From an uncultured Methylomirabilota bacterium (GTDB lineage Bacteria > Methylomirabilota > Methylomirabilia > Methylomirabilales > 2-02-FULL-66-22): a stretch of 64,000 nt of DNA. Position numbers and translations under genes: made by a program. Location: contig OY970067.1 in NCBI GenBank assembly GCA_963705305.1, positions 4,480,001 to 4,544,000 on the forward strand. Reading direction: 5' to 3'. Within the stretch, counting starts at the first letter, position 1; each line of letters opens with the position of its first letter. A model generated the notes under the pieces. The model did not search any database and was not told the origin of the DNA. It saw nothing but the letters and a program-made list of their open reading frames with translations. This document shows, piece after piece, positions 31,762-57,918 of this stretch.

Positions 31762-31822
31762 GCGAGGTCCCGGGAATCCGTCGCCCCTTCTGTCCGGGCG
31801 GCGGGGCCCGGAGGGATGGCCG

Positions 31823-34648: not shown

Positions 34649-34649
34649 C

Positions 34650-35153: not shown

Positions 35154-35165
35154 GAGGGAGACGCG

Positions 35166-35534
35166 GTGGAACGCTGGAGATGGCTGATCGGGGCTGCGGC
35201 CCTGGCGTGGGCCTTGATCGTGATCCTGTGGTGGCCGCTCCCCTTCCTGTTCTACCCGAGGCTCCCATTCGTGGCCCTCTTCGGCCGCGCCCTCTACATC
35301 CTGGTCCTGGCCTCCCTGCTGTGTCTCTACCGGGTGGCCCGCGGACCCACCAGCGCGGACCGGATCGTGGCGGTCGACCTGTTGGGCGTGATGATCATCG
35401 GGTTGTGCGCGGTGCTGACCATCACCACCCGCCGCAGCTGGTACCTGGACATCGGCCTGGCCTGGGCGCTGCAGAGCTTCATCACCGTGCTGGCGCTCAG
35501 CAAGTTTCTGGAGGGCAGGAATCGTGATGCGTGA
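35166..35534 (+). CDS. MrpF/MnhF-like subunit
   Basis: RVARGPTSADRIVAVD; GTG start after AGGAGG. Confidence 0.88.
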   Translation: MERWRWLIGAAALAWALIVILWWPLPFLFYPRLPFVALFGRALYILVLASLLCLYRVARGPTSADRIVAVDLLGVMIIGLCAVLTITTRRSWYLDIGLAWALQSFITVLALSKFLEGRNRDA

Positions 35535-35871
35535 ATGGGCGGGACTCCTGTTCGTCGGCCTGGGACTGGCCTTCGACCTCTTCGGCTGCATTGGGCTGAT
35601 CCGCCTGCCGGACGTGTACCTCCGACTCCAGGCCGCCACCAAGTGCATCACGTTGGGGACCTGCAGCATCCTGTTCGGGACGTTCCTGATCATGGGCTTC
35701 ACGGCCGGGGGGATCAAGGCCCTCCTGTGCATCTGTGTCATTGCCCTGACCAACCCGGTGGCCGCTCACGTCATCGCCCGCAGCGCCCATCGGGCCGGCA
35801 TCGCATTCTGGAAGGGAACGCTGGCGGACCAGTACGCAGAGGATCGAGGGAAGCGGCGTGAAGTGGCCTAA
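35527..35871 (+). CDS. MrpG/MnhG-like subunit
   Basis: GLIRLPDVYLRLQAATK, TNPVAAHVIARSA. Confidence 0.9.
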   Translation: MREWAGLLFVGLGLAFDLFGCIGLIRLPDVYLRLQAATKCITLGTCSILFGTFLIMGFTAGGIKALLCICVIALTNPVAAHVIARSAHRAGIAFWKGTLADQYAEDRGKRREVA

Positions 35872-36469
35872 GCTTCGAGAGCTTCGAGAGGCAGTCAGGG
35901 CGCTGGCGACGGGACCCTATACCTCTTCCTTCCCAGCCGTACCGCACCACCCGCACCCGAACTTCCGGGGCCGGTACACCTTCAACGAAGAGGCGTGCGT
36001 GGGCTGCCTGGCCTGTCAGGAGGTCTGCCCGGTGGGCGCCATCGCGCACGAGGACCGGGTGGAGGGAAAAGGAGCCGCGCGGACCCTGATCCATTACTCC
36101 GACACCTGCATCCTCTGTGGCGAGTGCGAAGCCCACTGCATCGCCGATCACGCGGGCATCCGGACGTCCAGCGAATGGGAGCTCTCCTTCTTCGATCGGA
36201 AGACCCAGTCGTTCGAGACGATCCGAAAGGAGCTCCAGCTCTGCGAGATCTGCGGCGCCGTGATCGCCGCCAAGGACCATCTGCGGTGGCTGGCGGAGCG
36301 ACTGGGCGAGCTCGCCTATTCCAGCCCGACGCTGTACCAGTCCCACCTCCAGCATCTCGGCCTGATCGACGGCAACCTGGTCGCCGCGTGCCGGGACGCG
36401 GCGCGCTCGGATCGGATGAAGATCCTGTGCGCGCCCTGCCGGCGGGCGACCACGCTCGTCGCGGACTGA
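35858..36469 (+). CDS. NuoI/HycF-like 2x[4Fe-4S] subunit
   Basis: FRGR, CVGCLACQEVCP, CILCGECEAHC, extra CEIC...CAPC. Confidence 0.88.
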   Translation: MKWPKLRELREAVRALATGPYTSSFPAVPHHPHPNFRGRYTFNEEACVGCLACQEVCPVGAIAHEDRVEGKGAARTLIHYSDTCILCGECEAHCIADHAGIRTSSEWELSFFDRKTQSFETIRKELQLCEICGAVIAAKDHLRWLAERLGELAYSSPTLYQSHLQHLGLIDGNLVAACRDAARSDRMKILCAPCRRATTLVAD

Positions 36470-36930
36470 TGCAACCCTCCTGGATCCGCCTCCTGCGCGG
36501 CAGGGTCGTCCTGGCGGGCATCGGCAACCCGCTGCGGGGGGACGATGCCGCCGGGCCCCGCCTCATCGAGCGGCTGCAGGGCCGCGTGCGGGCCGCCTGC
36601 GTGGACGCCGGCCCCGCCCCGGAAAACTATGCCGGCCGGATCACGCGGGAGGATCCGGATACAATTGTTCTCGTCGATGCGGTTCATTTGAACCAGGCAC
36701 CGGGTGCGTACGCCCTGCTGGAGCCGCTCGACATCCTGAAGGGCGGGCTCAGCACGCACGACCTCTCCCCTCGGCTGCTCATCGATTACCTCCGCAGACA
36801 CAGCCGGGCCCGCATCTACCTGCTGGGGATCCAGCCGCAAAACCTATCGCTGGGCGCCGATCTGTCCGAGCCGGTCCAGAGGGCCGTGGACGAGCTGGCG
36901 ACTTGCCTGGGCGCAGCGCTCTGCCCCTGA
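36469..36930 (+). CDS. Hydrogenase maturation endopeptidase (HycI-like)
   Basis: GIGNPLRGDDAAG, PEN, VDA, STH, GIQP. Confidence 0.9.
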   Translation: MQPSWIRLLRGRVVLAGIGNPLRGDDAAGPRLIERLQGRVRAACVDAGPAPENYAGRITREDPDTIVLVDAVHLNQAPGAYALLEPLDILKGGLSTHDLSPRLLIDYLRRHSRARIYLLGIQPQNLSLGADLSEPVQRAVDELATCLGAALCP

Positions 36931-37479: not shown

Positions 37480-39510
37480 ATGCCCCACACGCTGACCACC
37501 TGCACCTTCTGTGGTGTGGGCTGTGGGATTTACCTCGAGACGGCCGGGAACAAGATCACGGGGGCGTATCCGAGCATGTCCCATCCGACCAACCAGGGGC
37601 GCATCTGCGTCCGCGGCTGGCACGTGAACGAGGTGGCCAGCGCTCCCGACCGGCCCCTGCGCCCCCTGCTCCGCCGCAACGGGGATTTCCAGGAGGTCGG
37701 CTGGGATGAGGCCTTGGGCTTCCTGGCCGACCGTTTGCGGAAGATTCGCGACCGCCACGGCCCCAACGCCATCGGCTTTCTGAACTCGCCGCGCAGCGGC
37801 AACGAGGAGAGTTACCTGCTCCAGAAGCTTGCCCGTGCGCTGATCGGAACGAACAACCTGGACCACGGGATGGGGGTCTACCGGCACAACAGCATCGAGG
37901 TCCTGCTGGCGATGCTGGGGGTACCGGCCACGACCAACTCGATCGGCGAGCTGGCCAAGAGCGAGGTGATCATCGTCAACGGGGTGGACCTGGGCCTGCA
38001 GCTTCCCACCGTCGGGGGAATCGTGATGCGGGCCAAGCTCAGGGGGGCGCGCCTCATCGTGATCGACCCCCGGCGGCATCGCATCGCGGAGCACGCCGAC
38101 TACTTCCTGCAGGTGCGGCCCGGCGGCGACACCCTGCTGTACGGGGCCATGGCCAAGGTGATCGTGGACCGGGGGCTCATGAACGCCAAGTTCATCAAGG
38201 CCCACTGCCGCCAGTACGAGCCGTTCCTGGAGCGCGTGCACGCCTACGACCTCCAGTGGGTCGCCGACACCTGCGGCGTCGCCCCGGGGTTGATCGAGGA
38301 GGCGGCCCTCACCTACGCCCGGGCCCACTCGGCCGCCATCCTGTTCTCCACCGGGGTCGAGGCCCGGGGGGACGAGGGGATCCAGGCGCTGGTCAACCTG
38401 GCCCTCCTGACGGGCAATATCGGGAAGGAGGGCTCCGGCATCTTCGCCCTGGCGGAGCACAACAATCTCCAGGGCGTGTGCGACATGGGCATGCTGCCCA
38501 ACCGGCTGCCCGGCTACAAACCCGTGACCGACCCCGAGGCGCGCCGGGAGTTCGAGCTGCTGTGGGGGGCAACGCTGCCGGCCGAGCCCGGAAAGGACGC
38601 CGACCGCCTGCTGGGCGACTGGGGCAACGGCGACGGGAAGGCTCTCTGGGTGTGCCGGCACGACCCCGTCATGGCCGCCTCGCTGGATGCCGCGACCGCC
38701 CTCCGGCAATTTGAGCTGGTGGTGGTGCAGCATCCCTTCCTGACGGAGACCGCCAAGTACGCCCACGTCTTCCTGCCGGCGGCCGCCTTCGGGGAGGAGC
38801 AGGTCACCTTCACCAATACCGAGCGGCGCATCCAGCTGGCCGAGAAGGCGGTCGACCCTCCCGCCGGCCTGACCCCCGCCTGGTGGCAGATCGCGCGCCT
38901 GGCCAACGCCCTGGGGGCATCCTGGAACTACCTGTCGGCCGCGGAGGTCATGGCGGAGATCGCCCGCGTCGTCCCGGCCTACCAGGGCGCCACATACGAC
39001 AATCTGGCCCGGGATTACGGCCGGCAGTGGCCGTGCACCAAGGAGAAGCTGCTGGGGACCCGGTTCCTGTTCGAGGAGGGGATCCAGGACCGCCCCTTCG
39101 CCTTCGCCCCGCTGAACCGGCCCGGTCCGGCGCCCTGTGTCTCCGAGGCATTTCCCTTCGCCCTGTCCTTCGGCAACTCGCTGTACTACTGGCACCACAA
39201 CGTCCTGGTGCAGCACAGCGAGACGCTCAAGCGGGAGTACCAGATCCTGCTGCTCGATTACCCCGAAGGCTTCGTGGACATCAACACGGAGGACGCCCGG
39301 CGCCTGAGCATCCGCGACGGGGCCAAGGTGCGCCTGATATCCGTGACCGGCTCCGCCACCACCACGGCCCGCGTCACCCCCGAGGTGAAGCCGGGCATGA
39401 TCTTCGTCCCGTACTTCCTGCGCGAGGTGCGCCAGCAAATCCTCGGCGAGGCGGGCCGCAGACGCGGCAGCAGCCGGCTGCCGGCCTGCGTGCGCCTGGA
39501 GAGGATGTGA
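37480..39510 (+). CDS. FdhF-like molybdopterin-oxidoreductase paralogue lacking the catalytic Cys/Sec and Arg
   Basis: CTFCGVGC...C cluster, SGNEESYLLQK, FTNTERRIQ; NNLDHGMGVYRH replaces NNxDxCARx(C/U)H and AEHNNLQG replaces RGxNNVQG. Confidence 0.88.
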   Translation: MPHTLTTCTFCGVGCGIYLETAGNKITGAYPSMSHPTNQGRICVRGWHVNEVASAPDRPLRPLLRRNGDFQEVGWDEALGFLADRLRKIRDRHGPNAIGFLNSPRSGNEESYLLQKLARALIGTNNLDHGMGVYRHNSIEVLLAMLGVPATTNSIGELAKSEVIIVNGVDLGLQLPTVGGIVMRAKLRGARLIVIDPRRHRIAEHADYFLQVRPGGDTLLYGAMAKVIVDRGLMNAKFIKAHCRQYEPFLERVHAYDLQWVADTCGVAPGLIEEAALTYARAHSAAILFSTGVEARGDEGIQALVNLALLTGNIGKEGSGIFALAEHNNLQGVCDMGMLPNRLPGYKPVTDPEARREFELLWGATLPAEPGKDADRLLGDWGNGDGKALWVCRHDPVMAASLDAATALRQFELVVVQHPFLTETAKYAHVFLPAAAFGEEQVTFTNTERRIQLAEKAVDPPAGLTPAWWQIARLANALGASWNYLSAAEVMAEIARVVPAYQGATYDNLARDYGRQWPCTKEKLLGTRFLFEEGIQDRPFAFAPLNRPGPAPCVSEAFPFALSFGNSLYYWHHNVLVQHSETLKREYQILLLDYPEGFVDINTEDARRLSIRDGAKVRLISVTGSATTTARVTPEVKPGMIFVPYFLREVRQQILGEAGRRRGSSRLPACVRLERM

Positions 39511-39512
39511 GC

Positions 39513-40580
39513 ATGCGGGCACGTGTCATCGGCAAGGCCGACATCCCGGGGCTGCTGGATCTGCTCCGCGAGGAGTACGAGGTCATCGCCCCCTTCTACG
39601 GCCGCGGACGGGACACCTACTTCGACACGGTCACGGATGCGAACCGCGACCGGGTCCAGATCCACGTTCCCAATCCCTACTACCCGCCCAAGCGGTACGT
39701 CTTCCCCCACCTGGAGCAACTGCTCACGGTGGAGATGGACGGCCGGCTGCGCATCGAGCCGACCCAGGACGCCCCCAAGCGGGCGCTCTTCGGCATCCGC
39801 TCCTGCGACACCGCCGGCATCTACCACCTCGACCGGTTCTACCTCGGCCGGGACTACCGGGACGTCTACTACGAGCGCTTGCGGCGCAACCTCTTCCTGG
39901 TCAACGTCGTCTGCACCGACCCGGATCTGGACATCGATGACGACTGCTTCTGCGTCTGCGCCGACACCGGGCCGGCGGCCCGCGACCACTTCGACCTCCA
40001 GCTCATGGACCTGGGCGACGAGCTTCTGGCGGTCGCCGGATCGCCGCAGGGGGAGGCCCTCTTCGCGCACGCCATCTTCCGGCAGGGCACGCCGGCCCAC
40101 GTGGCCAGGCGGCGCGAGATCCTGACCAACGTCCGGAAGCGGTTCAAGCTGGCGACCAGCTGGTACGCGGGCACCGTCCGCTACATCACCACGGACCGCG
40201 TGGCCGACACCACCTGGCAAGGGATCGGCAACCGCTGCCTCGAGTGCGGCGGGTGCAGCTACATGTGCCCGACCTGCACCTGCTTCACCGTCACGGAGCG
40301 CCGCACCGGCCCCTCCACGGTGGAGCGGGTGCGCCTGTGGGATTCGTGCGCCCTGGGTGGATTTACCCGCATGGCCGGCGGGTTCAATCCGCGGCGCGCC
40401 GCCCACGACCGCCGCAACCGTCGCTTCTTCCGAAAGCTGGCCCACTATTTCATCCAGCGGGAGCTGTCGGTGGCCTGTGTGGGGTGCGGGCGCTGTGTGG
40501 AGGTCTGCCACGGGGACATCGGGATGCCCAACGTCGTCGAGACGATTCGGCGGGCCAGCGCGGAGAGCGAGACATCATGA
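39513..40580 (+). CDS. AsrA/HydB-like 4Fe-4S protein
   Basis: GIRSCD, CFC, CLECGGCSYMCPTCTC, CVGCGRCVEVC. Confidence 0.88.
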   Translation: MRARVIGKADIPGLLDLLREEYEVIAPFYGRGRDTYFDTVTDANRDRVQIHVPNPYYPPKRYVFPHLEQLLTVEMDGRLRIEPTQDAPKRALFGIRSCDTAGIYHLDRFYLGRDYRDVYYERLRRNLFLVNVVCTDPDLDIDDDCFCVCADTGPAARDHFDLQLMDLGDELLAVAGSPQGEALFAHAIFRQGTPAHVARRREILTNVRKRFKLATSWYAGTVRYITTDRVADTTWQGIGNRCLECGGCSYMCPTCTCFTVTERRTGPSTVERVRLWDSCALGGFTRMAGGFNPRRAAHDRRNRRFFRKLAHYFIQRELSVACVGCGRCVEVCHGDIGMPNVVETIRRASAESETS

Positions 40581-41425
40581 GCGGGCTGCAGACGGAGAAC
40601 GTGTACCTCCCCAAAGTCGCGATCCTGGATCGCGTGGTCGACGACATCGCGGACGTCAAGACCTTCTACTGGCACTTCCAGGACCCCGCCGACCAGGCGG
40701 CGTTCCGGGCCTTCAAGCCGGGGCAGTTCGCGCAGGTCTCGGTGTTCGGCACCGGAGAGTTTCCCGCCTCGCTGCCGCCCAGCCCGACTGAGGCGGAGGT
40801 GTTCTTCACCATCCGGCGCGTGGGGGGCGTCACCTCCGCCTTGCACCAGCTGGCGCCCGGCAGCCAATTCGGCGTCCGGGGACCCTACGGGAACGGGTTC
40901 CCCATGCAGGACTACGCCGGGCGGAACCTGGTGTTCGTGGCCGGGGGCATCGGCCTCATCCCCCTGCGATCCTGCATCATCTACGCGCTCCACAACCGGG
41001 AGAAATTCGGGAAGATCCAGCTCTTCTACGGCGCACGCGGCCCGCGCGAGCTGATGTACCTGGACCAGCTGCGCACCTGGGAGCAGACCGAGGGCTTCGA
41101 GTGCTACCTGACCGTGGACCGCGCAGACGAATCCTGGCGCGGGCACGTGGGGGTGGTGGGCAGCCTGTTCAAAGTGGCCGGCGTCCAGGTCCCGGTGGAG
41201 AACACCACCGCCTTCGTCTGCGGGCCCCCAATCATGTTCCGATTCGTCATCCGGGACTTGAAGGACATGGGATTCGAGGACCGGCACATCATGTCCACCC
41301 TGGAGCGCTACATGAAGTGCGGCGTGGGAAAGTGCGGCCACTGCTGCATCGGGCTGGCCTACGTGTGTGTGGACGGTCCGGTCTTCACGTTCGAGCAGAT
41401 CAAGAAGCTGGGCGAGGTCATCTGA
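40577..41425 (+). CDS. AsrB/HydG-like FAD/NAD(P)-binding protein
   Basis: PGQF, RGPYGNGFP, GGIGLIPLR, CGPPIM, MKCGVGKCGHC. Confidence 0.9.
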   Translation: MSGLQTENVYLPKVAILDRVVDDIADVKTFYWHFQDPADQAAFRAFKPGQFAQVSVFGTGEFPASLPPSPTEAEVFFTIRRVGGVTSALHQLAPGSQFGVRGPYGNGFPMQDYAGRNLVFVAGGIGLIPLRSCIIYALHNREKFGKIQLFYGARGPRELMYLDQLRTWEQTEGFECYLTVDRADESWRGHVGVVGSLFKVAGVQVPVENTTAFVCGPPIMFRFVIRDLKDMGFEDRHIMSTLERYMKCGVGKCGHCCIGLAYVCVDGPVFTFEQIKKLGEVI

Positions 41426-41937
41426 TGGGCGATCTTCGGTCCGATCTTCGCGCGTGCCTCGCCGGACGAGTCTGCCTCGTCGGCGTCGGCAATCCGGACC
41501 GGGGCGACGACGCCTTCGGCCCGCGGCTGGCCGAGGCCCTGCAGGCGGCCGGCGTGCCCGACGTGGTCGTAGCGGGCACCACGCCGGAGCATTGGATCGG
41601 CCGCCTCGGCGACGGGCGCTTCGAGACCATTATTTTTCTGGATGCGGTCGAGGTGGGGGCGGAGCCGGGCGCAGCAGTCCTCCTCGACGCCGGAGCGCTG
41701 GCCGCCCGGTTCCCCCAGATCTCCACCCACAAGATCTCCCTGGGGGCCCTGGCCCGGGTGCTGGAGAGCACGGGGCGCATCCGCGTCTGGCTGCTCGGCG
41801 TTCAGCCGAAGTCGCTGGCCATGGGACCCGATCTCAGCCCGCCCCTCCGGGCCACCCTGGACATCCTGAGGGATCTGCTCTACGACGCGCTGTCCGCCCG
41901 GATGGCGGGCGCGAACTCGGTGTGGGGGCAAGTATGA
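41425..41937 (+). CDS. Hydrogenase maturation endopeptidase (HycI-like)
   Basis: GVGNPDRGDDAFG, TPE, LDA, STH, GVQP. Confidence 0.88.
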   Translation: MGDLRSDLRACLAGRVCLVGVGNPDRGDDAFGPRLAEALQAAGVPDVVVAGTTPEHWIGRLGDGRFETIIFLDAVEVGAEPGAAVLLDAGALAARFPQISTHKISLGALARVLESTGRIRVWLLGVQPKSLAMGPDLSPPLRATLDILRDLLYDALSARMAGANSVWGQV

Positions 41938-43913
41938 CTGCGGCCAACGCCATCCTGATAGCCTTTCTCGCCTGCGCCGGCGGAGCCCTGCTGACCCTCG
42001 CCGCCTCCCGCAGCAAGCCCGTGGCTGGCTGGCTGGCGCTCATCGCAACCGCCCTGTCCAGCGGCCTGGCCATGTACGCGGCGGGGCGCGTCCTGTTTCA
42101 CGGACCCGACCCCGCGGTCGTCCTCTGGAGCCTGCCCCAGTTCGGCTCGACCCTGCGCATCACGGTGGACGGTCTGAGCGGGGTCTTCCTGGGCCTGATT
42201 GCCCTGATCGCCTTCCTGGCCGCCTTGTACTCCATCCCCTATCTGGAGCACTATCCGGACTACGGTGCGGGCCGCTATTACCCGTATTTCCTGCTCTTCG
42301 TCGGGGGAATGTACGGCATCGTCTCCACCAGCGACCTGATGCTCTTCTTCTGCCTGTTCTGGCAGGTCATGACCCTGGCGTCCTACGCCCTGGTCCGCTA
42401 CGAATACCGCAGGCCGGAGAACGTCCGGGCGGCCAACAAGTATCTGCTGCTGATGGAGATCGCCTGCGCCCTGATCTTGCTGGGGGCCCGTCTGCTGGCC
42501 AGCGGGCCGCTCACGCTGCCCACCGGGGAGGTCCTGGCACGCTACGACTTCGACGCCATCGCGCACGGCCTGCCGGGCCTTCTGCCGGGCGGCGCCGGCC
42601 TGGTGGCGGGGGCCCTCCTCCTGTTCCTGGTGGGCTTCGGGATCAAGGCCGGGATGTGGCCGCTCGGCCAGATCTGGCTGCCGGACGCCCATCCGGCCGC
42701 CCCCTCCCCGGTGAGCGCCCTCCTGTCGGGAGTCATGATCAAGACCGGGATCTACGGCCTCATGCGCTCCTTCCTGTGGCTCATCCCTGCAGAGGCGAGC
42801 GGGGCGCTTCGCCTACAAATCTGGGGGCTGGCCATCGCCCTCCTGGGGACGATCACCCTGTTCGTGGGGACCATGCAGGCCCTCCGGCAGGAGCAGTCCA
42901 AGCGACTGCTGGCCTTCAGCAGCATCGGCCAGGTGGGCTACATCCTGCTGGGGCTGGGGGCCTGCCTGGCGCTGTTCCCCGCGGGATCGGGCGCAAGCCC
43001 CGCTCTGCTCCTCTCCACCCTGGCCCTGTACGCCGCCCTCTTCCATACGCTGAACCACGGCCTGTTCAAGAGCCTGCTGTTCCTGAACGCCGGCTCGGTG
43101 CTGTACGCCACCGGCACGCAGGACCTGAATCGCCTGGGGGGCCTGATCCGGTTCATGCCCCTCACCGCCCTCACCACCCTGGTCGCCTCGCTGGCCATCT
43201 CGGGGGTCCCGCTGCTGAACGGCTTCGCCAGCAAGTGGAGCCTGTACGTCGCCGTCCTCCTGGGAAGCCGCTTCTCCCCCTTCCTGGCGGTCTGTGCGGT
43301 GGTGGCCATGCTGACGAGCGCCGTGACCCTGGCGCTCTTCCTCAAGTTCTTCGGCGCGGCCTTCCTGTCGCGGACCAGCCGACTGGTGGCGGACCGCGCC
43401 CGCCAGCCGCACGGCCTGAAGGTCGGCTGGTGCATGCAGGCCCCCCAGCTCGTCCTGGCAGTCCTCTGCCTGTTCCTCGGCCTGGCGCCGGCGGCGGCCT
43501 TCCAGATCATCCACCGGGCCCTGGCCGGCTCCCCGCAAGGACTGGGCACGGCCCTGGCCCAGGCCTCGCCCTTCGTCGTGGCGGCCCGAACGGGCATCGG
43601 GGCCCTGGACGGCCGGGCGGTCTTCGCCCCGTTGGCGGTGGCCGTCGTCTTCGCCGGCCTGCTGCTCGGCGTCGCCTGGGTCTCCCGCCTGGGAGGCACG
43701 GTGCGACGGTCGGCCGAGCCCTGGCTGTGCGGCTATGTCGCCGAATCGGAGCAGACCCGTTACGGCGCGCGGAATCTCTACCGGGAGGTCACCCGGTACT
43801 TTGGCTGGCTGGGAGGGACGCGCCCTCTCCCGGCCGCTCGACCCGTGACGGATCCGCCGACGGATGCACATTCCCCGGGGGGCCAAGCGTCCACCCCGGG
43901 CGCAAGGACATAA
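41934..43913 (+). CDS. HycC/HyfB-like antiporter membrane subunit
   Basis: WLPDAHPAAPSPVSALLSGVMIKTG, KRLLAFSS, GVPLLNGFASKW, C-terminal W-CGY. Confidence 0.9.
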   Translation: MTAANAILIAFLACAGGALLTLAASRSKPVAGWLALIATALSSGLAMYAAGRVLFHGPDPAVVLWSLPQFGSTLRITVDGLSGVFLGLIALIAFLAALYSIPYLEHYPDYGAGRYYPYFLLFVGGMYGIVSTSDLMLFFCLFWQVMTLASYALVRYEYRRPENVRAANKYLLLMEIACALILLGARLLASGPLTLPTGEVLARYDFDAIAHGLPGLLPGGAGLVAGALLLFLVGFGIKAGMWPLGQIWLPDAHPAAPSPVSALLSGVMIKTGIYGLMRSFLWLIPAEASGALRLQIWGLAIALLGTITLFVGTMQALRQEQSKRLLAFSSIGQVGYILLGLGACLALFPAGSGASPALLLSTLALYAALFHTLNHGLFKSLLFLNAGSVLYATGTQDLNRLGGLIRFMPLTALTTLVASLAISGVPLLNGFASKWSLYVAVLLGSRFSPFLAVCAVVAMLTSAVTLALFLKFFGAAFLSRTSRLVADRARQPHGLKVGWCMQAPQLVLAVLCLFLGLAPAAAFQIIHRALAGSPQGLGTALAQASPFVVAARTGIGALDGRAVFAPLAVAVVFAGLLLGVAWVSRLGGTVRRSAEPWLCGYVAESEQTRYGARNLYREVTRYFGWLGGTRPLPAARPVTDPPTDAHSPGGQASTPGART

Positions 43914-43914
43914 G

Positions 43915-45597
43915 ATGCCGGCACACAGGATTCTCCAGCAGCTGAACGAGAAGTTCGCGGCGGTCATCCAGCGGACCGATATCCCCGAGAACACTCGGCT
44001 GTTCGTGTACGTCGAGCCCCAGGCCGTGCCCGACATCTGCCGCCACATCTTTCGGGACCTGGACGCCCGCTATGTCGTGAGCATCGGCCTGGACGACCGG
44101 CCCATCTCGGGGAAGTTTCTGGTGGCCCACGATTTCGCCTTCGATGCCGCCCACGTCCTGTGCAGCATCCTGGCCTACGTGCCCAGCCCCGATCCGCGGA
44201 TCGACAGCATCGCTCCCGCCGTCCCGCCGGCCAACTGGGCCGAGCGCGAGTTTCGGGATCTGGTGGGCATCCAGCCGGTGGGGCACCCGTCCCCCAAGCG
44301 GCTGATCCTGCCGGACGGCTGGCCCGAGGGGGTGCATCCGCTGCGCCGGGACTACCCCTGGAACGCGGTGCCGCCCGGCTACGACGAGACCCGGGAGTAC
44401 GCCTTCGATGACGCGCCGGAGGGCTGCGTGGCCGTCCCCTTCGGCCCCTTCCACCCCACCCTGGACGAGCCGGCGCACTTCCGGCTGTACGTCGAGGGGG
44501 AGATCGTTCGCGGCTGCGAATACCGGGGCTTCATGGTCCATCGCGCCATCGAGAAGCTGGGCGACTCCGTCCTCACCTACAACGAGATCCCCATGGCCGC
44601 CGAGCGCATCTGCGGCATCTGCGGCTGCGTCCACAACGTGGCCTATGCCCAGGCGGTGGAACAGGCGGTGGCGCTCAAGCCGCCTCCCCGGGCCGAATAT
44701 ATCCGGACCATCATGCTGGAGATCGAGCGGCTGCACAGCCATCTCCTCTGGGTGGGGCTGGCCTGCCACATTCTGGGATTCGACACGCTGTTCATGCAGT
44801 GCTTCCGCATCCGCGAGCCCATCATGTGGGTGGCGGAGAAGATCAGCGGCAACCGCAAGACCTACGCCCTCTGCGTGGTGGGGGGCGTCCGCTGGGACAT
44901 CACCCCCCCGCTGAAGGCGGAGCTGCAGCAGGTCCTCTCCACCCTGGAGGCCGAGTGGCGGCCCGTCGCCGCCGCCGTCAGCGGAGATCGGAACATCCAG
45001 CAGCGGACGCGGGGGATCGGAATGGCCGGTCCGCGCCTGGTCAAGGAGGCGGCCCTCATCGGCCCGGTGGCCCGGGCCGCCGGCGTGGACATCGACTGCC
45101 GCCGCGACCACCCCTACGCCGCGTACGGGCGGGTGGACTTCGCGGTGGTGGTGCAGAGCGGAGGCGATGTCTGGTCGCGCCTCCTGGTGCGGGTCCTGGA
45201 GGTCTTCGAGTCCATCAAGATCATCCGCCAGTGCCTGGATCAGATGCCCGAGGGTCCGCTCTGCCTCCCCGCCGGGGACGAGCTGCCCGCCGGCCGCATG
45301 GGGGTGTCCTCGGTGGAAGCCCCGCGGGGCGAGTCCCACCACTTCGTGATCACCGGGGAAAACAACCGCCCCCGGCGCTGGCGCGTGCGGGCGCCGACGT
45401 ACCAGAATCTGCAGGGGGTCCCGGCCATGATCCGGGACCAGCAAATCGCCGACATGACCATCACGCTGGGGAGCATCGACCCGTGCTTCTCCTGCACGGA
45501 TCGCCTGGAGGTGGTCGACGTTCGTTCGGGCGCGGTGCGGGTGTATGCGCAGGCGGAGCTTCTGGCGCTGGCCCGCGCCCCCCGGACCGGGCAATAG
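43915..45597 (+). CDS. Group 4 [NiFe]-hydrogenase large subunit, HycE/HyfG-type NuoC-D fusion
   Basis: N-terminal NuoC domain (WAEREFRDL...HPLRRD), L1 ERICGICGCVH, L2 DPCFSCTDR plus tail. Confidence 0.92.
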   Translation: MPAHRILQQLNEKFAAVIQRTDIPENTRLFVYVEPQAVPDICRHIFRDLDARYVVSIGLDDRPISGKFLVAHDFAFDAAHVLCSILAYVPSPDPRIDSIAPAVPPANWAEREFRDLVGIQPVGHPSPKRLILPDGWPEGVHPLRRDYPWNAVPPGYDETREYAFDDAPEGCVAVPFGPFHPTLDEPAHFRLYVEGEIVRGCEYRGFMVHRAIEKLGDSVLTYNEIPMAAERICGICGCVHNVAYAQAVEQAVALKPPPRAEYIRTIMLEIERLHSHLLWVGLACHILGFDTLFMQCFRIREPIMWVAEKISGNRKTYALCVVGGVRWDITPPLKAELQQVLSTLEAEWRPVAAAVSGDRNIQQRTRGIGMAGPRLVKEAALIGPVARAAGVDIDCRRDHPYAAYGRVDFAVVVQSGGDVWSRLLVRVLEVFESIKIIRQCLDQMPEGPLCLPAGDELPAGRMGVSSVEAPRGESHHFVITGENNRPRRWRVRAPTYQNLQGVPAMIRDQQIADMTITLGSIDPCFSCTDRLEVVDVRSGAVRVYAQAELLALARAPRTGQ

Positions 45598-45607
45598 GGA
45601 AGGAGCC

Positions 45608-46534
45608 ATGAACGCTGGCCTGGGCCTCATGCTGCTCTTCGCGGCGCTGAACGCGGCGCTGGTGCTCGCCGTGGCCCCCCTGTGCGAGGGGATCCTGCGC
45701 AAGGTCACTGCCAAGATCCAGTCCCGGCAGGGGCCGCCGCTCTGGCAGCCCTACTACGACTTGCTGAAGCTGCTGGGCAAGGAGGACCTCGAATCGGGGG
45801 AAAGTCCCCGGATGCAGCGGTTCGCGGCCGTCCTCGCCCTCTCCGCCATCCTGATGGTGGCCATGCTGATCCCCATGGGGCGCCCGGCCCCGCTGGGCGG
45901 GTACGGCGATGTCGTGCTCCTCATCTACCTGCTGACCCTCTGCGGGATCTCCACCATGCTGGCCGGTCTGGCCGCGGGCTCCACCTATTCCCTGGTGGGC
46001 ATGAGCCGGGAGATGATGTCTCTCATGACCCTGGAGCCGCTGCTGGCCGTGGCGATCATCATCGGGACCGTCCATGCCGGCTCGCTGCGCTTGGGGACGG
46101 TGCTGAACGGATCCCTGTACGCCTCGGGTGCGCTTCCCCTGGCCGGCCTCCTCATGCTGGTGGTGGTGCTCCTCTCCCTGCAGGGATTCGTGGGGCGGCT
46201 CCCCTTCGACATCGCCGAGGCCGAGACGGAGCTGATGGAGGGGCCGCTGGCGGAGTACTCGGGGGCCAAGCTGGCGCTCTTCAAGTTCGCCCAGATGGTC
46301 AAGCTGGTGGTGTACAGCGCGCTCCTGGTGGCCCTGTTCGCCCCCTGGGGGAGCGCCTGGCCATACCCCCTGAGCGCGCTCGTGCTGCTGGCCAAGATCT
46401 TGGTCCTGGTCCTGCTTGTGACGCTGGTGGCGGCGACCCACGCCCGCTACCGCATCGATCAGGCCATCCGCTACTACGCCGGCCTGTTCGGCGCCGCCTT
46501 TGTGGCCCTGCTTTTGGCCCTGTGGGGCTTTTGA
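45608..46534 (+). CDS. HycD/HyfC-like membrane subunit
   Basis: IQSRQGPPLWQPYYDLLKLLGK, PFDIAEAETELMEGPLAEYSG. Confidence 0.92.
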   Translation: MNAGLGLMLLFAALNAALVLAVAPLCEGILRKVTAKIQSRQGPPLWQPYYDLLKLLGKEDLESGESPRMQRFAAVLALSAILMVAMLIPMGRPAPLGGYGDVVLLIYLLTLCGISTMLAGLAAGSTYSLVGMSREMMSLMTLEPLLAVAIIIGTVHAGSLRLGTVLNGSLYASGALPLAGLLMLVVVLLSLQGFVGRLPFDIAEAETELMEGPLAEYSGAKLALFKFAQMVKLVVYSALLVALFAPWGSAWPYPLSALVLLAKILVLVLLVTLVAATHARYRIDQAIRYYAGLFGAAFVALLLALWGF

Positions 46535-46548
46535 GGAACGGGGGAGCC

Positions 46549-47073
46549 ATGTCGCTGCTGAGCAAGCTGAAGGAAACCGCGATCTGCCTGCGGGCTGGAA
46601 GGGTGACCCGGCCCTACCCGGCCCAGCCGGCCCCCACCCCTCCCGGCTTCCGGGGACGGCCGATCTTCGATGCGAGCAAGTGCATCGGCTGCGCCGGCTG
46701 CGCCAACAACTGCCCCGCCCGCGAGATCCTGGTCCACGACATCTGCCAGGAGATCCGCATCATCAAGTACATCGGGCGCCGCTGCACCTATTGCGGCCGC
46801 TGCGCCGACGTCTGTCCCGAAAAGGCCATCACGATGAGCACGGACTTCGAGACCGCCACCAACGACATCCACGACCTCCAGCAGGAGCTCGAGCTGTTCA
46901 TGGGGACCTGCCAGCGCTGCGGCCGCTGCTTCAAGGAGCCGGGGCCCCTCGAGCAGCTCATGATGAAGGGGTACCGGTTCGACGAGCTCAAGGACGATCG
47001 GTGGATCCACCGCTCGACGGCCTACCTTGAGGGCCAGCCGGTGGTCCGAGATATTGAGATCGAGCTGGATTGA
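46549..47073 (+). CDS. HycF/HyfH-like 4Fe-4S subunit
   Basis: GFRGRP, CIGCAGCANNCP, CTYCGRCADVCP, CQRCG. Confidence 0.9.
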   Translation: MSLLSKLKETAICLRAGRVTRPYPAQPAPTPPGFRGRPIFDASKCIGCAGCANNCPAREILVHDICQEIRIIKYIGRRCTYCGRCADVCPEKAITMSTDFETATNDIHDLQQELELFMGTCQRCGRCFKEPGPLEQLMMKGYRFDELKDDRWIHRSTAYLEGQPVVRDIEIELD

Positions 47074-47081
47074 CGCCATAA

Positions 47082-47233
47082 CAGGCCGCTGAAAAAGGCC
47101 CATCTGCGGCGTTGGTCCGCTCGGGCACTCGCTGCGGCGTACTGAAAGTACGCCTCACTCAGCCCTTTGCGGACCGCCTTGCATCTGGACCTTTTTGAGC
47201 AGCCTGGGGGAAGGCGGGTTTTTCATCACACTG
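47082..47233 (+). mobile_element. MITE copy 3, inside the hydrogenase operon
   Basis: CAGGCCGCTGAAAAAGGCCCATCTG...GCATCTGGACCTTTTTGAGCAGCCTG...TTTTCATCACACTG. Confidence 0.8.
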
Positions 47234-47249
47234 ATAGGGGGGAACGGAC

Positions 47250-47785
47250 GTGTTAAAGGGACTCTGCCGGAAGGTCTTCCCGCGGTCGCTCTGGGTCTAC
47301 CACGCCAACAGCGGGGGCTGCAACGGATGCGACATCGAGGTCCTGAACGTCCTGACCCCGTATTATGATGTGGAGCGCTTCGGCATCCGGCTGGTGGGCT
47401 CCCCCCGCCACGCCGATGTGATGCTGTGCCAGGGACCCGCCATGCGGTCCACCGCCCGGGCGCTGCGGCGCGCCTACGAGGCCATGCCCGCCCCCAAACT
47501 GGTCTTCGCGATCGGCTCTTGCGCATGTGGGGGGGACTCTGGTATGATACATACAGCGTCCTGGGGCCGGTGGAGAAGGTGCTTCCCGTGGATTTCTACA
47601 TCCCGGGCTGCCCGCCCCGCCCCGAGGCGATCCTCTACGGGGTGGCGGTGGCGGTAGGGCTGGTGGACAAGAAGGTGGCGCCGGTCCAGCTCAAGCAGCT
47701 GGAGTTCCCGATCCCGAAATACCATCCGGAAGACCTCCAGCAGGACGACGGCATGGTCGTCTATCAGAAGCTCAACCGGGTGTAA
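47250..47785 (+). CDS. HycG/HyfI-like small subunit; one-base frameshift in the G7 run at 47529-47535
   Basis: GGCNGCDIE...SPRHAD...GSCACGG, then LWYDTY...YIPGCPPRP in the adjacent frame; G8 restores a 178-aa protein. Confidence 0.88.
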
Positions 47786-47844: not shown

Positions 47845-48186
47845 ATGCACGAAGTGGGCCTGATGCAGGACACGCTCATCATCGCGCTCCGGCACGCCAC
47901 GCAGGAGGGCGCCCGGCGGGTTCACCGCCTGACCATGCGGGTGGGTCCCCTGTCGGGTGCCGTCCCCGAGGCCCTGGAGTTCGCCTTTGACGTGCTGGCC
48001 CGCGGCACCATGGCCGAGGGCGCCCGTCTGGAGATCGAGCGCGTCCCCATCGTGTGCTACTGTCCGAGCTGTGCCCAGGAATTCACGGCCGACGATTTCC
48101 TCTGCGAATGTCCCCACTGCCATGCGCCCAGCGTGGAGGTTCGGCACGGCCGGGAGCTGGAGCTCGCCAGTCTGGAGGTATCCTGA
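47845..48186 (+). CDS. hypA: Hydrogenase nickel metallochaperone
   Basis: MHE start, CPSC...CPHC, GREL. Confidence 0.96.
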
Positions 48187-48187
48187 C

Positions 48188-49084
48188 GTGTGCAAGGAAT
48201 GCGGCTGCGGCATCGTGGAAGGCTTTCGAGTCGACGGAGAGCCGGTCGTTGCGGACCCGGGGCCGGGTACCCCCGGGGTGGCCCCCGGGGCGGCGCATAC
48301 CCATTCGCACGAGGCCGGGGAGGACCACGGCCATTCCCATCCGCACCCGCACGGGCCGCATGTCCACGGCGCCGACCATGCGCACGACCACCGGACGGTC
48401 CCGGTGCACGAGGCGATCCTCGATAAGAACGACCGGCTGGCCGAGCGGAACCGCGGCTACTTCGCCGGCAAGGGCCTGCTCGTGCTCAACCTGCTCTCCT
48501 CCCCGGGCGCCGGCAAGACCGCTTTCATCGAGCGGACGGTGGCGGACCTGGGGGCGCGCCTCCGGGTCGGCGTGATCGTGGGCGACCTCGAAACGGACAA
48601 CGACGCGCGGCGGCTGCGCGGCCGCGGGGTACCGGCGGTCCAGATCACCACCGGCAACGTGTGCCACCTGGATGCGGAGATGGTCGCCCACGCCCTGGAG
48701 CGGCTGGAGCTGGACGCCCTGCAGGTCCTCATCATCGAAAACGTGGGGAACCTGGTCTGCCCGGCCTCCTACGATCTTGGCGAGGACTTCCGCGTGGTGA
48801 TCATGTCGGTCACCGAGGGCGAGGACAAGCCGCTCAAGTACCCGGTCATGTTTCGCACCGCGCAGGTGGTCGTGGTCAACAAGACCGACATCCTCGAAGC
48901 CGTCGGATTCGACCGCGAGACCGCCCTGCAAAACATCCGCCGCGTGGCCCCCCAGGCCACCATCTTCGAGCTTTCGGCGCGCACGGGAGAAGGCATGGCG
49001 CAGTGGTACCAATACCTCGAGGAGCGGCTGCGCCGGCCCCGCCACGGCGTGATCCGAAACCCGGCGGGAACGGCAGCCTCCTAA
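48188..49084 (+). CDS. hypB: Hydrogenase nickel-incorporation GTPase
   Basis: GTG start (M)CKECGC, His-rich linker, [32 protein letters not shown]. Confidence 0.96.
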
Positions 49085-49104
49085 CCCCATTCCGAAAATA
49101 TCTC

Positions 49105-49252
49105 ACCGCCAAGGCGCCAAGAAGGCCATGGCTGGAATGGGCGGAACACCCAGCGACTGGAGCCGCGTCAAGCCCCCCGGAGGGGGCGTTCCGGAGCACG
49201 GAGTCAAACCAGCCGAATTCCGTGGACTATGAGACCTCGGCGTCATGGCGGT
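49105..49252. repeat. REP-like element (CCGCCAAGRCGCCAAG family), paired arms
   Basis: ACCGCCAAGGCGCCAAG (49105-49121) and CTCGGCGTCATGGCGGT (49236-49252). Confidence 0.65.
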
Positions 49253-49279
49253 TCAAGAGTATTCTCGGCTCAAGGCTAA

Positions 49280-49496
49280 CAGGCGTCTGAAAAACTCCCA
49301 TCTGCGGACACCCCGCCTTCGGCCGGGTACCCGCGCACTCCTGCGGGGCTGCGACGTACGCGCTCAGTACGCCTCCGACCCACCTCCGGTGGGTACCCCG
49401 CGGCGGGTACCGATCCCGAGGGATGGATGACGGCGCCTTGCATCTGGGCCTTTTTGAGCAGCCTGACCGAAAATGAGTTTTTCTGCCGATCCCCTG
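49280..49496 (+). mobile_element. MITE copy 4 (right end degenerate)
   Basis: CAGGCGTCTGAAAAA...GTACGCCTCCGACCCACCTCCGGTGGGTACCCCGCGG (shared with copy 2)...CTTTTTGAGCAGCCTGACCGAAAAT. Confidence 0.8.
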
Positions 49497-49653
49497 CCCT
49501 TCGCCCGGCGACCGGCGATCGTCTCTATCCCTGCCATGATCCTTGCCAGCGTTCCAAGCGCTCGAGTTCTCCCTCACCTATTCTTCACGAGTTATCTCCA
49601 TTCATGGATAAATACGAGCAACATTATCTGCTAACTGTTTAAAATATTTACAC

Positions 49654-49682
49654 TTGACGCAATTCCATGCAGGTGCCATTCT
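49654..49682 (+). promoter_or_regulatory. Putative sigma70 promoter of the hdr-mvh cluster
   Basis: TTGACG-N17-CATTCT with TG extension, after an AT-rich UP-like tract. Confidence 0.4.
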
Positions 49683-49936
49683 ATTTTCAAAGTGAGATTG
49701 GTCAGGCCAGCGGACCATCTGGCCTCAGGTGATAAGGGGAAGCTACGAAAGGAACCCAAACCAGGAAATAAGCCGCATTACCGGATTGAGCTCGTCGTCT
49801 CGACCCGTCAAACAACCATCGAAAGACGCCATGATTACACGCGATCAGCGCACCGACACCTCATAATTCTCGCGCGACCGACCCGTCACGACACCGGCCG
49901 CGCTGCGCCAAACCCCGCGACCTCCCGGAGGGGGCA

Positions 49937-51997
49937 ATGAGTCATCAGGTACGTTCGGAGGGTTTCCCGGGCAACGGCAACGGAGATACACCGCGCACGG
50001 GCGTATTCATATGCCACTGTGGCGGGAACATTTCCGACGTGGTAAACGTCCAACGCGTCGCGCAGGAGATCGGCGCCCTCCCGGGTGTGGCCTGCTCCAT
50101 GACCCACACCTTCATGTGCTCCGACCCCGGCCAAGCCCTCATCCAGGAGAAGATCAAGGAGTGCAATCTCAACCGGGTCGTCGTCGCCGCCTGCTCTCCC
50201 AGCCTGCATGAACTGACGTTTCGCCGCACCCTCACCCGCAGCGGCCTGAACCCCTACCTGTACGAACATTGCAACATCCGCGAGCAGTGCTCCTGGGTGG
50301 TCCGCAATAAGGAGCTGGCCACCCAGAAGGCCACGCGGCTGATCCGCGCGGCGGCAGCGCGCGCCGGCCATCTGACTCCCCTGCAGAAGCGCCGCATCCC
50401 CATCCACCCCGAGGCGCTCGTCATCGGCGGAGGCATCGCGGGCCTGGTGGCAGCCCGGGACCTGGCGCAGCGCGGCATCCGCGTCACGCTGGTCGAACAG
50501 TCGCCGTTCCTGGGAGGCCGGGTCGCCCAGATGGGGAAGGTCTTCCCCACCGAAGAGCGCGCCCGCGATCTTTTGAATCCCATCATCGCCGAGGTCGTCA
50601 AGCATCCCCGGGTGACCGTCCTCACCAATGCCCGGGTGACCCACGCCGAGGGGATTGTCGGCAATTTCAAGGCGCACATCCAGATCATTCCTCGCGGCGT
50701 GAACTCCAGGCTGGCCGCTCCCGGCCACGTCATGGCCGCCTGCCCCGTGGAGACCGAGAACGAGTTCGACTTCGGATTGACCAAGCGGAAGGCGATCTAC
50801 CAGCCCTACTACGGCTGCTATCCGCAGCTGCCCGCCATCGATTGGACCGCCTGCACCAAGTGCGGGAAGTGTATCGAGGCATCGGGGGGGAAAGGCATCG
50901 AGCTGGATGCACAGCCGCGCGAAACCGAAGTGCATGCCGGCGTGATCGTCCTGGCCACGGGCCACGACCCGTACGAGCCGCTGCCAGGCGAGTACGGGTA
51001 CGGGAAGTTCCCGGAGGTGGTGACCCTCCAGCAGATGTACCGGATGCTGGACACCGACGGGCCCACGGGCGGCGAGGTGAAAGCCAACGGCGCTCCCGTC
51101 CGCACGGTCGTCTTCATCTACTGCGTCGGCGCACGGCAGCGCGAGGGCATCAGCGTGCCCATGCCCGACGGGCGGGTGCGCGAGTACTGCGGCAGGACCT
51201 GCTGCACCGCCTCGCTGAAGATCGCCACCGAGCTGCAGGAGCGCTACCCCCGCATGAACATCTACAGCTTCTACCAGGATGTTCGCGCCTACGGCCGCGG
51301 GCACGAGGAATACTACACCCGGGCATCCGAGGGCGGCGCCATCTTCCTCCGCTACGACCCCAACCATCCCCCGCGGGTGGAGAAAGATTTTCGCGGGACG
51401 TCCGCGCTGATCGTGCGCGGCCGCGACCTCCTGACGGGGGATGTCGAGCTGGAGGTTCCGGCCGACCTGGTGGTCCTGTCCACCGGCGTCGTGCCCCACG
51501 ACATCAGCGACCTGGTCGAGATCTTCAAGTGCTCCATCGGTCCGGACACCTTCTTGCTGGAGGTCCATCCGAAGCTGCGGCCGGTCGAGCTGGCGGTGAG
51601 CGGGGTCTTCCTGGCGGGGACCTGCCAGAGTCCCATGGACATCACCGAGGCCTCGGCCGGCGGCGCGGCTGCCGCGTCCAAAGCCGCCGCCATGGTGGTG
51701 CAGGCCGAGGTCGAGATGGATCCCTTCATCGCCACCGTGGATGAGCAGCTCTGCACCGGATGCCAGACCTGCCTCACAGTGTGTCCCTACGACGCCCTCA
51801 GCCGGGACGAGGCCAAGCACATCGCCGTGGTCAACGAGGCCCTGTGCACCGGCTGCGGCAGCTGCGCCGCCACCTGCCCGAGCGATGCGATCCAGCAGCG
51901 GGGGTTCACAGACCGCCAGGTGCTTTCCGAGCTGCTGGCGCTCCTGGCGCGCCAGGCGCCGGCGGGAGCAGGCGATCTATTGACCGTCGGCCGATAA
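49937..51997 (+). CDS. hdrA: Divergent HdrA-like flavoprotein (QmoB-like)
   Basis: CHCGGNI, FMCS, ACSP, GGGIAG, YCGRTCC, HPKLRPVE, C-terminal 2x[4Fe-4S]. Confidence 0.9.
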   Translation: MSHQVRSEGFPGNGNGDTPRTGVFICHCGGNISDVVNVQRVAQEIGALPGVACSMTHTFMCSDPGQALIQEKIKECNLNRVVVAACSPSLHELTFRRTLTRSGLNPYLYEHCNIREQCSWVVRNKELATQKATRLIRAAAARAGHLTPLQKRRIPIHPEALVIGGGIAGLVAARDLAQRGIRVTLVEQSPFLGGRVAQMGKVFPTEERARDLLNPIIAEVVKHPRVTVLTNARVTHAEGIVGNFKAHIQIIPRGVNSRLAAPGHVMAACPVETENEFDFGLTKRKAIYQPYYGCYPQLPAIDWTACTKCGKCIEASGGKGIELDAQPRETEVHAGVIVLATGHDPYEPLPGEYGYGKFPEVVTLQQMYRMLDTDGPTGGEVKANGAPVRTVVFIYCVGARQREGISVPMPDGRVREYCGRTCCTASLKIATELQERYPRMNIYSFYQDVRAYGRGHEEYYTRASEGGAIFLRYDPNHPPRVEKDFRGTSALIVRGRDLLTGDVELEVPADLVVLSTGVVPHDISDLVEIFKCSIGPDTFLLEVHPKLRPVELAVSGVFLAGTCQSPMDITEASAGGAAAASKAAAMVVQAEVEMDPFIATVDEQLCTGCQTCLTVCPYDALSRDEAKHIAVVNEALCTGCGSCAATCPSDAIQQRGFTDRQVLSELLALLARQAPAGAGDLLTVGR

Positions 51998-52009
51998 GGG
52001 GGATTGGGC

Positions 52010-55034: not shown

Positions 55035-55071
55035 ACCGGCGGGACGGAGCCCCCCAGGGAAAGGGCGCACC

Positions 55072-56400: not shown

Positions 56401-56430
56401 GCGACAGCGGAGGGATGACGGGGGGCAACC

Positions 56431-57884: not shown

Positions 57885-57918
57885 GCGGGTCGCCGCGACG
57901 CCTTCAGCTCCTTCGACG

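Follow-up and report, generated by a model that had tools for sequence, protein, structure and literature searches.

What is made by an operon that resembles a formate hydrogenlyase operon, when the subunit that should oxidise formate has lost the residues for doing so? This question is raised by a nine-gene operon in a 64,000-nucleotide stretch of DNA (hereafter the window) from an uncultured Methylomirabilota bacterium (assembly GCA_963705305.1, contig OY970067.1, positions 4,480,001 to 4,544,000 of the forward strand). Matches to Pfam and NCBIfam place the operon, tightly packed, on the + strand between window positions 37480 and 47785. It encodes an FdhF-like subunit, a pair of proteins resembling the beta and gamma subunits of Pyrococcus furiosus sulfhydrogenase I (SHI; these proteins are also AsrA- and AsrB-like), and the subunits of a [NiFe] hydrogenase of the Hyc/Hyf type. 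Judging from the sequences, we estimate a probability of roughly 60% that the product would be a membrane-bound, ion-translocating hydrogenase that has NAD(P)H, not formate, as its partner, and in which the FdhF-like subunit is kept as a structural relic.

A residue-by-residue alignment to E. coli FdhF (1aa6_A, where Sec140 is printed as X) placed Tyr134, Arg135 and Ala325 of the FdhF-like subunit opposite Sec140, His141 and Arg333. The same columns were obtained from alignments to the Cys-type formate dehydrogenases (FDHs) HDCR FdhF, F420-FDH and R. capsulatus FDH. An earlier reading, made from the letters of the window and their translations (the sequence-only reading), had called this FdhF catalytically degenerate, quoting the motifs HGMGVYRH and AEHNNLQG and noting that the N-terminal [4Fe-4S] motif is kept. 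Both motifs are found in the translation, all four Cys of the CxxCxxxC...C motif are retained, and the position aligned to Sec140 holds neither a Cys nor a TGA codon; the degeneracy is confirmed, and by these alignments the subunit lacks the formate-oxidising residues. In a phmmer search against PDB, the best matches of the FdhF-like protein were FDHs, namely HDCR FdhF (E = 1.1e-130), F420-FDH (6.3e-122) and E. coli FdhF (1.1e-108). It scored 584.5 bits against TIGR01591 (formate dehydrogenase alpha), below the cut-off of 666.25, and 116.7 bits against TIGR01973 (NuoG), for which the cut-off is 470.05. The protein begins straight at the Fe4S4 domain, without the N-terminal [2Fe-2S]/[4Fe-4S] domain of the NuoG type.

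To describe the family, we examined the best 120 of 6,557 proteins that a word-indexed protein search returned at E <= 1e-30. These homologues are 644-705 residues long and 64-78% identical to the FdhF-like protein of the window. The region around the former selenocysteine reads NN[VL]DHGxG[VA]Y, and the next residue is C, S, R, G, T or a different one, so that the position after Tyr134 is not conserved. The region around the former arginine reads [AP]L[TASN]E[HQ]NN[LM]QG, with T, A, S or N at the Arg position. In an exhaustive search of representatives clustered at 50% identity, the family comprised two full-length clusters (62% and 48% identity), and the next sequences were at 40% or less.

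We aligned 150 of these representatives. The 68 canonical ones, in which the Cys, His and Arg are present, have 107 columns with a conservation of 85% or more, and we compared the family to these. The family keeps 81 of these columns and has replaced 26: L42I, K45R, C130G, R132G, C134Y, H135x, N170D, H175L, T294E, P323A, R325T, G326E, Q327H, V330L, G393R, K440E, G442V, N446S, D467A, I470Q, T564F, R566H, H646F, N652x, D657x and K671V. The residue after the fourth Cys of the [4Fe-4S] motif is Lys in all 68 canonical representatives and Arg throughout the family (Arg45 in the FdhF-like subunit). The replaced columns are located at the active site and in putative pterin and guanine contact segments; many of them lie in the GxNxxxxHP, EKxGTxTN, DW, TGR and C-terminal segments, which, from FDH and Nap structures, we take to hold the two guanine dinucleotides. 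Fifty-three other degenerate representatives mostly retain K440, G442, D467 and G393; the FdhF-like family has therefore degenerated further than they have.

These 53, counted among the nearest 150 representatives, have neither the Cys nor the Arg that canonical FDHs carry. In a midpoint-rooted FastTree phylogeny of 141 representatives (10 fragments were dropped), the family groups with about 20 stand-alone degenerate FdhF-like proteins. On this sequence sample, degenerate FdhF-like proteins form a broad radiation; the tree is a pointer, and we draw no order of events from it.

The operon is not peculiar to this genome. When one genome per species was scanned, 213 stretches proved to encode a relative of the FdhF-like protein, and the best 80 (54-75% identity) were taken as loci. 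By record title, 49 of these are from Verrucomicrobiota, 14 from Acidobacteriota, five from Planctomycetota and four from Methylomirabilota, with one each from Omnitrophota, Nitrospirota, Geobacteraceae and Chthonomonadaceae, and four without assignment. In tblastn searches with the window proteins, the same gene order and strand recurred in these best 80 of the 213 loci, which represent at least eight phyla. When only loci with enough downstream sequence are counted, the AsrA-like and AsrB-like genes are each present in 70 of 70, HycI in 69 of 69, HycC in 65 of 66, HycE in 60 of 60, HycD in 58 of 59, HycF in 60 of 61, and the N-terminal half of HycG in 56 of 60. The HycG misses are loci in which a second HycC copy or an unexplained stretch pushes the gene beyond the fetched flank. 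The association of FdhF-like homologues with AsrAB and group 4 genes, on which the sequence-only reading depended, is thus seen in nearly every locus examined. The iron-sulfur (FeS) Cys of the FdhF-like protein are kept in all 79 relatives compared.

Some loci depart from this layout. Two tandem HycC-like genes are found in nine of the 80 loci (L006, L019, L021, L022, L024, L029, L046, L056 and L076), and three verrucomicrobial loci (L071, L073 and L074) have no HycC-like gene within the operon; the size of the membrane arm therefore varies in the family. In a locus from Verrucomicrobiae (L048, 18037-22034), no match to HycD, HycF or HycG was found up to 4 kb past HycE, and the locus may contain an insertion or be rearranged. 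In the closest of the fetched relatives, a Methylomirabilota metagenome-assembled genome (MAG), the AsrA-like gene has an in-frame TAG at codon 170 (L001, 9373-10431).

We used the genomes reached through these loci to determine whether the FdhF-like subunit is accompanied by the synthesis of a molybdenum cofactor. The sample consists of 50 operon-carrying genomes, which are MAGs of unstated completeness. MoaA (TIGR02666) was over the cut-off in 26 genomes, with partial matches in two more; moaC (TIGR00581) was found in 29, MoeA_N (PF03453) in 32, and the control, recA (TIGR02012), in 46. All three markers occur together in 26 genomes, two occur in four, one in three, and none in 17. Of the 17 marker-less genomes, 16 have recA, and 15 contain exactly two matches to PF00384, namely the FdhF-like gene and one other; in both of the marker-less genomes that were checked, this second protein is NuoG (TIGR01973, 439.5 and 532.6 bits). 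As 17 of the 50 carriers are without the cofactor-synthesis markers, the FdhF-like subunit is, on this indirect evidence, probably cofactor-free. Position 135 is a Cys in 11 of the 17 marker-less genomes, and Cys135 is therefore not a Mo ligand. Together, the replaced columns and the census suggest that the subunit is probably without the molybdenum- or tungsten-bis(pyranopterin guanine dinucleotide) cofactor (Mo/W-bisPGD). The sequence-only reading had proposed that the FdhF fold serves as a NuoG-like scaffold and electron wire, or alternatively acts on a substrate other than formate. The scaffold gains support from the marker-less third of the carriers and from the replaced FDH columns, and the alternative of another substrate at a Mo/W site is weakened by the census. 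As a separate observation, locus L086 (G043:C258) includes a TtrA/PhsA-like protein with a Tat signal, which scores 462 bits, far under the cut-off, in a genome without moaA, moaC and MoeA; this is either an incomplete MAG or another cofactor-less member.

The proposed partner of the hydrogenase is encoded directly downstream of the FdhF-like gene. The best PDB matches of the two proteins are the beta (9nez_B, E = 1.2e-35) and gamma (9nez_C, E = 3.3e-57) subunits of P. furiosus sulfhydrogenase I, a group 3b enzyme in which this module oxidises NADPH. Across 25 sequences the Cys motifs of the SHI-beta-like subunit do not vary, and the SHI-gamma-like subunit has its nucleotide-binding motif GGIG[LMI]IP and its C-terminal Cys motif for a [2Fe-2S] cluster in 74 of 74 relatives. 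The description of the AsrA/AsrB-like pair as an NAD(P)H flavoprotein module thus holds; from these matches, the pair would belong to a diaphorase module of the sulfhydrogenase type, an assignment made at the family level only. No HycB-like gene is found among the nine genes of the operon, as the sequence-only reading had claimed, and the SHI-beta/gamma-like genes occupy that place.

We predicted the complex of the SHI-beta-like subunit (alignment of 25 rows) with residues 1-640 of the FdhF-like subunit (alignment of 22 rows). The median ipSAE was 0.85, versus 0.00 for the best of three controls; in the calibration, 116 of 157 solved complexes attained this mark, as did two of 215 mismatched pairs. 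Contacts agreed to at least 94% among three runs, with partner pLDDT values of at least 87. In the predicted interface, the FeS domain of the FdhF-like subunit (residues 1-57, tightest at 41-47, around Cys43) faces residues 240-251 and 330-335 of the SHI-beta-like subunit, which are its invariant CxxCxxCxxxC motifs. The model supports binding of the FdhF-like FeS domain to the SHI-beta-like subunit. The idea of the FdhF-like subunit as an electron wire fares less well: it has a single [4Fe-4S] site and none of the N-terminal clusters of NuoG, and it is predicted to sit on the SHI-beta-like subunit. In the available text of Takano et al. 2026 (PMC13582414), an AlphaFold model for related clusters likewise makes the FdhF-like subunit a terminal branch.

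The hydrogenase subunits retain the features of the Hyc type. In HycE, the Ni-binding motifs RICGICGCVH and DPCFSCTDR are intact and are followed by a 30-residue C-terminal tail; a tail of this type is removed by HycI. Of 65 relatives, 64 have the first motif and 64 the second. Genes for HycI and for hypA/hypB lie in or adjoining the operon. The best solved relative of the HycE-like subunit is E. coli HycE (group 4a), and the best NCBIfam match of the HyfB/HycC-like subunit is hydrogenase 4 subunit B (394.8 bits, below the cut-off). A fused large subunit of the HycE type with HycC, D, F, G and HycI is present as in E. coli formate hydrogenlyase-1, with the reservation that hycG is frameshifted. 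Given the intact Ni-binding motifs, this is a genuine hydrogenase, unlike the '4f/Ehr' complexes, which are without Ni ligands in the available part of the preprint that describes them (bioRxiv 10.1101/328856). The group 4f treated in that preprint is a different one, without Ni ligands.

If the hydrogenase is driven by NAD(P)H, the FAD of the SHI-gamma-like subunit would oxidise the nucleotide, and electrons would pass through its [2Fe-2S] cluster to the clusters of the SHI-beta-like subunit, then to HycF, HycG and the [NiFe] site of HycE, where protons would be reduced; the reverse direction is also conceivable. Coupling of this reaction to the membrane potential would fall to HycD and the HyfB-like subunit. 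The FdhF-like relic, which keeps its [4Fe-4S] cluster, would dock by that domain on the SHI-beta-like subunit, in a structural role or as a side branch. We infer the specificity for NAD(P)H, the electron path past the contact between the FdhF-like and SHI-beta-like subunits, the direction of the reaction, and the ion coupling. The potential of NAD(P)H is about -320 mV and that of H2 at 1 atm is -414 mV, so the evolution of H2 would need a low H2 pressure or an input from the membrane potential; the reverse reaction, on the side of H2 oxidation, could pump ions. With 60-78% identity across phyla, the FdhF-like protein is conserved to the same degree as the catalytic subunits and is therefore needed. 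By analogy with NuoG of complex I, which has a cofactor-less molybdopterin-like domain, its role would most simply be structural, like that of the molybdopterin-like part of NuoG.

Several observations weigh against this reading. The recA control was missed in four of the 50 carrier genomes, and seven of the 50 show just one or two of the cofactor markers. Two marker-less genomes (G042 and G043) hold further molybdopterin-family genes, one of them TtrA/PhsA-like, and may be incomplete. The genome from which the window is taken makes the cofactor itself, as it contains moaC and three other PF00384 matches. The NCBIfam models for HydB, ShyB, AsrA, HydG, ShyC and AsrB match the SHI-like pair below their equivalog cut-offs. 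The docking result may partly mirror solved complexes of the FdhA-FdhB type, as 8rvu_E weakly matches the SHI-beta-like subunit. The strong conservation of the FdhF-like protein, together with its invariant replacement columns, would also fit a new function. Finally, hycG is frameshifted in this genome.

The two halves of hycG are in different frames, and a G7 run at 47529-47535 is one base short. The gene reads TGT GGG GGG GAC... where relatives encode Cys-Gly-Gly-Gly-Leu-Trp; adding one G, or a -1 slip on the G run, yields exactly the conserved HycG sequence. As sequenced, the frame stops at 47657, leaving the conserved C-terminal part with its PGCPP motif in another frame. The halves are in frame in all 54 relative loci compared, and both are 84-92% identical to those of the nearest relative (L001). 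The earlier description of one operon of nine genes is thus right as to gene content and coordinates, and wrong in so far as hycG is not one open frame. Of ten homopolymer-flanked frame changes in the window, the one in hycG was judged intragenic; the other nine were read as gene boundaries and were not all checked singly. The gap between hycF and hycG is 176 bases long and contains an imperfect-hairpin repeat of about 150 bases, which has 47 matches across its own genome, folds at -74 kcal/mol (z = -3.3), and belongs to no Rfam family. Among the public sequencing runs listed, none contains this genome, the fraction of sampled words in any run being 0.11 or less, and no RNA run is listed. For the enzyme to work in this genome, the hycG frameshift must be either bypassed or an error of assembly.

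A tentative alternative, to be taken seriously for this genome, is therefore that the operon is decaying or silent here: the hycG frameshift would be real, and the repeat upstream of hycG would disturb expression. A G7 run where G8 would keep the frame, the loss of the conserved C-terminal part with PGCPP from the out-of-frame product, and the seat of a hairpin repeat with 47 genomic matches between hycF and hycG all agree with decay, as does the finding that hycG is the sole case judged intragenic among the ten homopolymer-flanked frame changes. However, assemblies often contain homopolymer errors of one base, the conserved sequence would be restored exactly by a -1 slip on the G run, and the eight other genes of the operon have intact frames and a high third-position GC content.

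We consider it unlikely that the operon encodes a three-way confurcating or bifurcating enzyme, in which FeS branches lead to the [NiFe] site, to the SHI-gamma flavin, and to an FdhF-like subunit that acts on a third substrate. This was suggested for related clusters: in the available text of PMC13582414, about half of the Fdh subunits in a 'Group 4b' subclade are without Cys/Sec, the clusters that encode them carry SHI-gamma and SHI-beta homologues, and AlphaFold models with three FeS branches are read as bifurcation or confurcation with an unidentified substrate. The FdhF-like FeS domain, which is predicted to lie against the SHI-beta-like subunit at its cluster motifs, would fit such an enzyme, as would the strong conservation of the FdhF-like protein and the invariance of its replacement residues. 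However, all three cofactor-synthesis markers are missing in 17 of the 50 carriers, so a Mo/W site is not general; the residue adjoining Tyr134 is not fixed (C, S, R, G, T and others occur); and the operon contains no candidate substrate gene. Bifurcation is not known for sulfhydrogenase I or for its gamma-type flavoprotein. It is doubtful to a like degree, if worth stating, that the FdhF-like subunit is not inert: its emptied pterin and guanine pocket, with a lining that is invariant in the family, may bind another ligand, and its [4Fe-4S] cluster may be a third working branch. The complex could then be regulated or confurcating, making H2 from NAD(P)H and a second donor, or could be a living analogue of the passage from a formate hydrogenlyase-like ancestor to the NADH-input module of complex I.

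The usual annotation of such operons, given also to related Acidobacteria MAG operons (fdhF-hyf) in the available part of bioRxiv 10.1101/197269, is formate hydrogenlyase. A genuine enzyme of that kind with an atypical active site agrees with the overall fold and the 35-40% identity to FDHs but is very improbable, as all three catalytic residues are replaced, the TIGR01591 score is under the cut-off, HycB is absent, and many carriers are missing the cofactor-synthesis markers.

The coordinates of the operon are collected in the table. Gene models were set from Pfam matches, from in-frame starts right after upstream stops, and from third-position GC content; long spurious open reading frames are plentiful because the window is GC-rich (0.61-0.71).

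Table. Genes and repeat of the operon, in window positions.
Feature	Position	Strand	Families and matches
FdhF-like subunit, 676 aa	37480..39510	+	PF04879, PF00384, PF01568
SHI-beta / HydB / AsrA-like iron-sulfur subunit, 355 aa	39513..40580	+	PF17179; 9nez_B
SHI-gamma / HydG / AsrB-like FAD, NAD(P)-binding, [2Fe-2S] subunit, 282 aa	40577..41425	+	PF00175, PF10418; 9nez_C
HycI-type hydrogenase maturation endopeptidase, 170 aa	41425..41937	+	PF01750; TIGR00072 96.8 bits, above cut-off
HyfB/HycC-like antiporter-type membrane subunit, 659 aa	41934..43913	+	PF00361, PF00662
HycE-type [NiFe] large subunit, NuoC-NuoD fusion, 560 aa	43915..45597	+	7z0s_E, E = 4.5e-127
HycD / NuoH-like membrane subunit, 308 aa	45608..46534	+	PF00146, E = 8.8e-60
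HycF / NuoI-like 2x[4Fe-4S] subunit, 174 aa	46549..47073	+	Fer4 families; NF009053, NF006076 below cut-offs
Dispersed hairpin repeat (MITE/REP-like), between hycF and hycG	47078..47246	+	47 matches in own genome
HycG / NuoB-like small subunit, two frames	47250..47785	+	G7 run at 47529-47535

Consensus scans of both operon ends found no promoter-like site and one terminator-like match, on the opposite strand only. No Rfam family reached its gathering score between 36800 and 48000. A second group 4 hydrogenase, of the Mrp/Mbh type, is located directly upstream of the operon (28448-36930); its cluster comprises a large subunit, MbhD/E-like, MnhB-like, MrpD-like and MrpF-like proteins, a ferredoxin, and its own HycI-type protease. 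Downstream (47845-61891) are hypA (47845-48186) and a HypB-like gene, followed by genes for an HdrA-like protein, MvhD, and a group 3c-like [NiFe] large subunit, with further Hdr-like FeS/CCG proteins in the same interval. The operon and the two flanking clusters form a hydrogenase island.

Genome and metagenome studies have labelled such operons as formate hydrogenlyase; the available part of bioRxiv 10.1101/197269 is one example. If their product ties H2 to NAD(P)H, not to formate, an enzyme that would be common in Verrucomicrobiota, Acidobacteriota and Methylomirabilota is misassigned in models of how hydrogen and formate cycle through the communities of peat, soil, wetland and groundwater. 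Among group 4 hydrogenases, a proton-coupled NAD(P)H:H+ oxidoreductase would be physiologically of a new type, and would offer a near functional parallel to the change from hydrogenase to complex I. The copy described here is in a closed genome of 5.6 Mb, and a genetic or biochemical test could be practical if the organism were cultured.

The comparison with known systems begins with E. coli formate hydrogenlyase-1 (FdhF with HycBCDEFG; 7z0s and 7z0t), which shares with the operon HycE, subunits of the HycC, D, F and G type, HycI, and a stand-alone subunit of the FdhF fold with one [4Fe-4S] cluster. The operon differs in that the residues equivalent to Sec140, His141 and Arg333 are replaced, HycB is absent, and a flavin/NAD(P) module is added; these three differences together argue that the substrate is not formate. 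The soluble sulfhydrogenase I of P. furiosus (group 3b, 9nez) shares the beta- and gamma-type subunits; there the module is carried by a soluble group 3b alpha-delta dimer, whereas here it would be carried by a membrane-bound group 4 hydrogenase. NuoG likewise has an FDH-derived fold without catalytic residues, in a group 4-related complex that is fed by a nicotinamide cofactor. However, NuoG has an N-terminal [2Fe-2S]/[4Fe-4S] wiring domain, whereas the FdhF-like subunit is without one and is much closer to true FDHs.

Our literature searches found no biochemical study of this kind of operon. Its architecture is not described in the HydDB paper, and the available part of PMC9324843 contains nothing on it. 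The closest published systems are the clusters of Takano et al. (PMC13582414). According to the available text, these resemble the operon in their Cys/Sec-less Fdh, in having homologues of SHI-beta and SHI-gamma next to it, and in a fused large subunit of the HycE type, and they occur in Methylomirabilota, Acidobacteriota and Armatimonadota, as does this kind of operon. By eye, one of their large subunits is about half identical to the HycE of the window. Their table, as available, lists no Verrucomicrobiota and none of the four locus contigs that we looked up.

The typical 4b cluster in that text combines a HyfE-like subunit with several antiporter subunits and ferredoxins, and the modelled example spans 12 accession numbers (legend to Supplementary Figure 1, PMC13582414), whereas the operon described here has nine genes, with one HyfB-like gene, one HycF and no HyfE-like gene. 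Its large subunit is of the Cys type, whereas the published set is described as [NiFe]/[NiFeSe]; HydDB assigns the published clusters to 4b, and the best solved relative of the large subunit described here is E. coli HycE (4a). The interpretations also differ: that of PMC13582414, as far as its text is available, is bifurcation with a third substrate, whereas the cofactor-marker result favours a cofactor-free subunit. This kind of operon is widespread, conserved and uncharacterised, though noted in print, and by comparison with the available text of PMC13582414 the present one is a smaller relative, of the Cys type, of clusters already recorded in silico.

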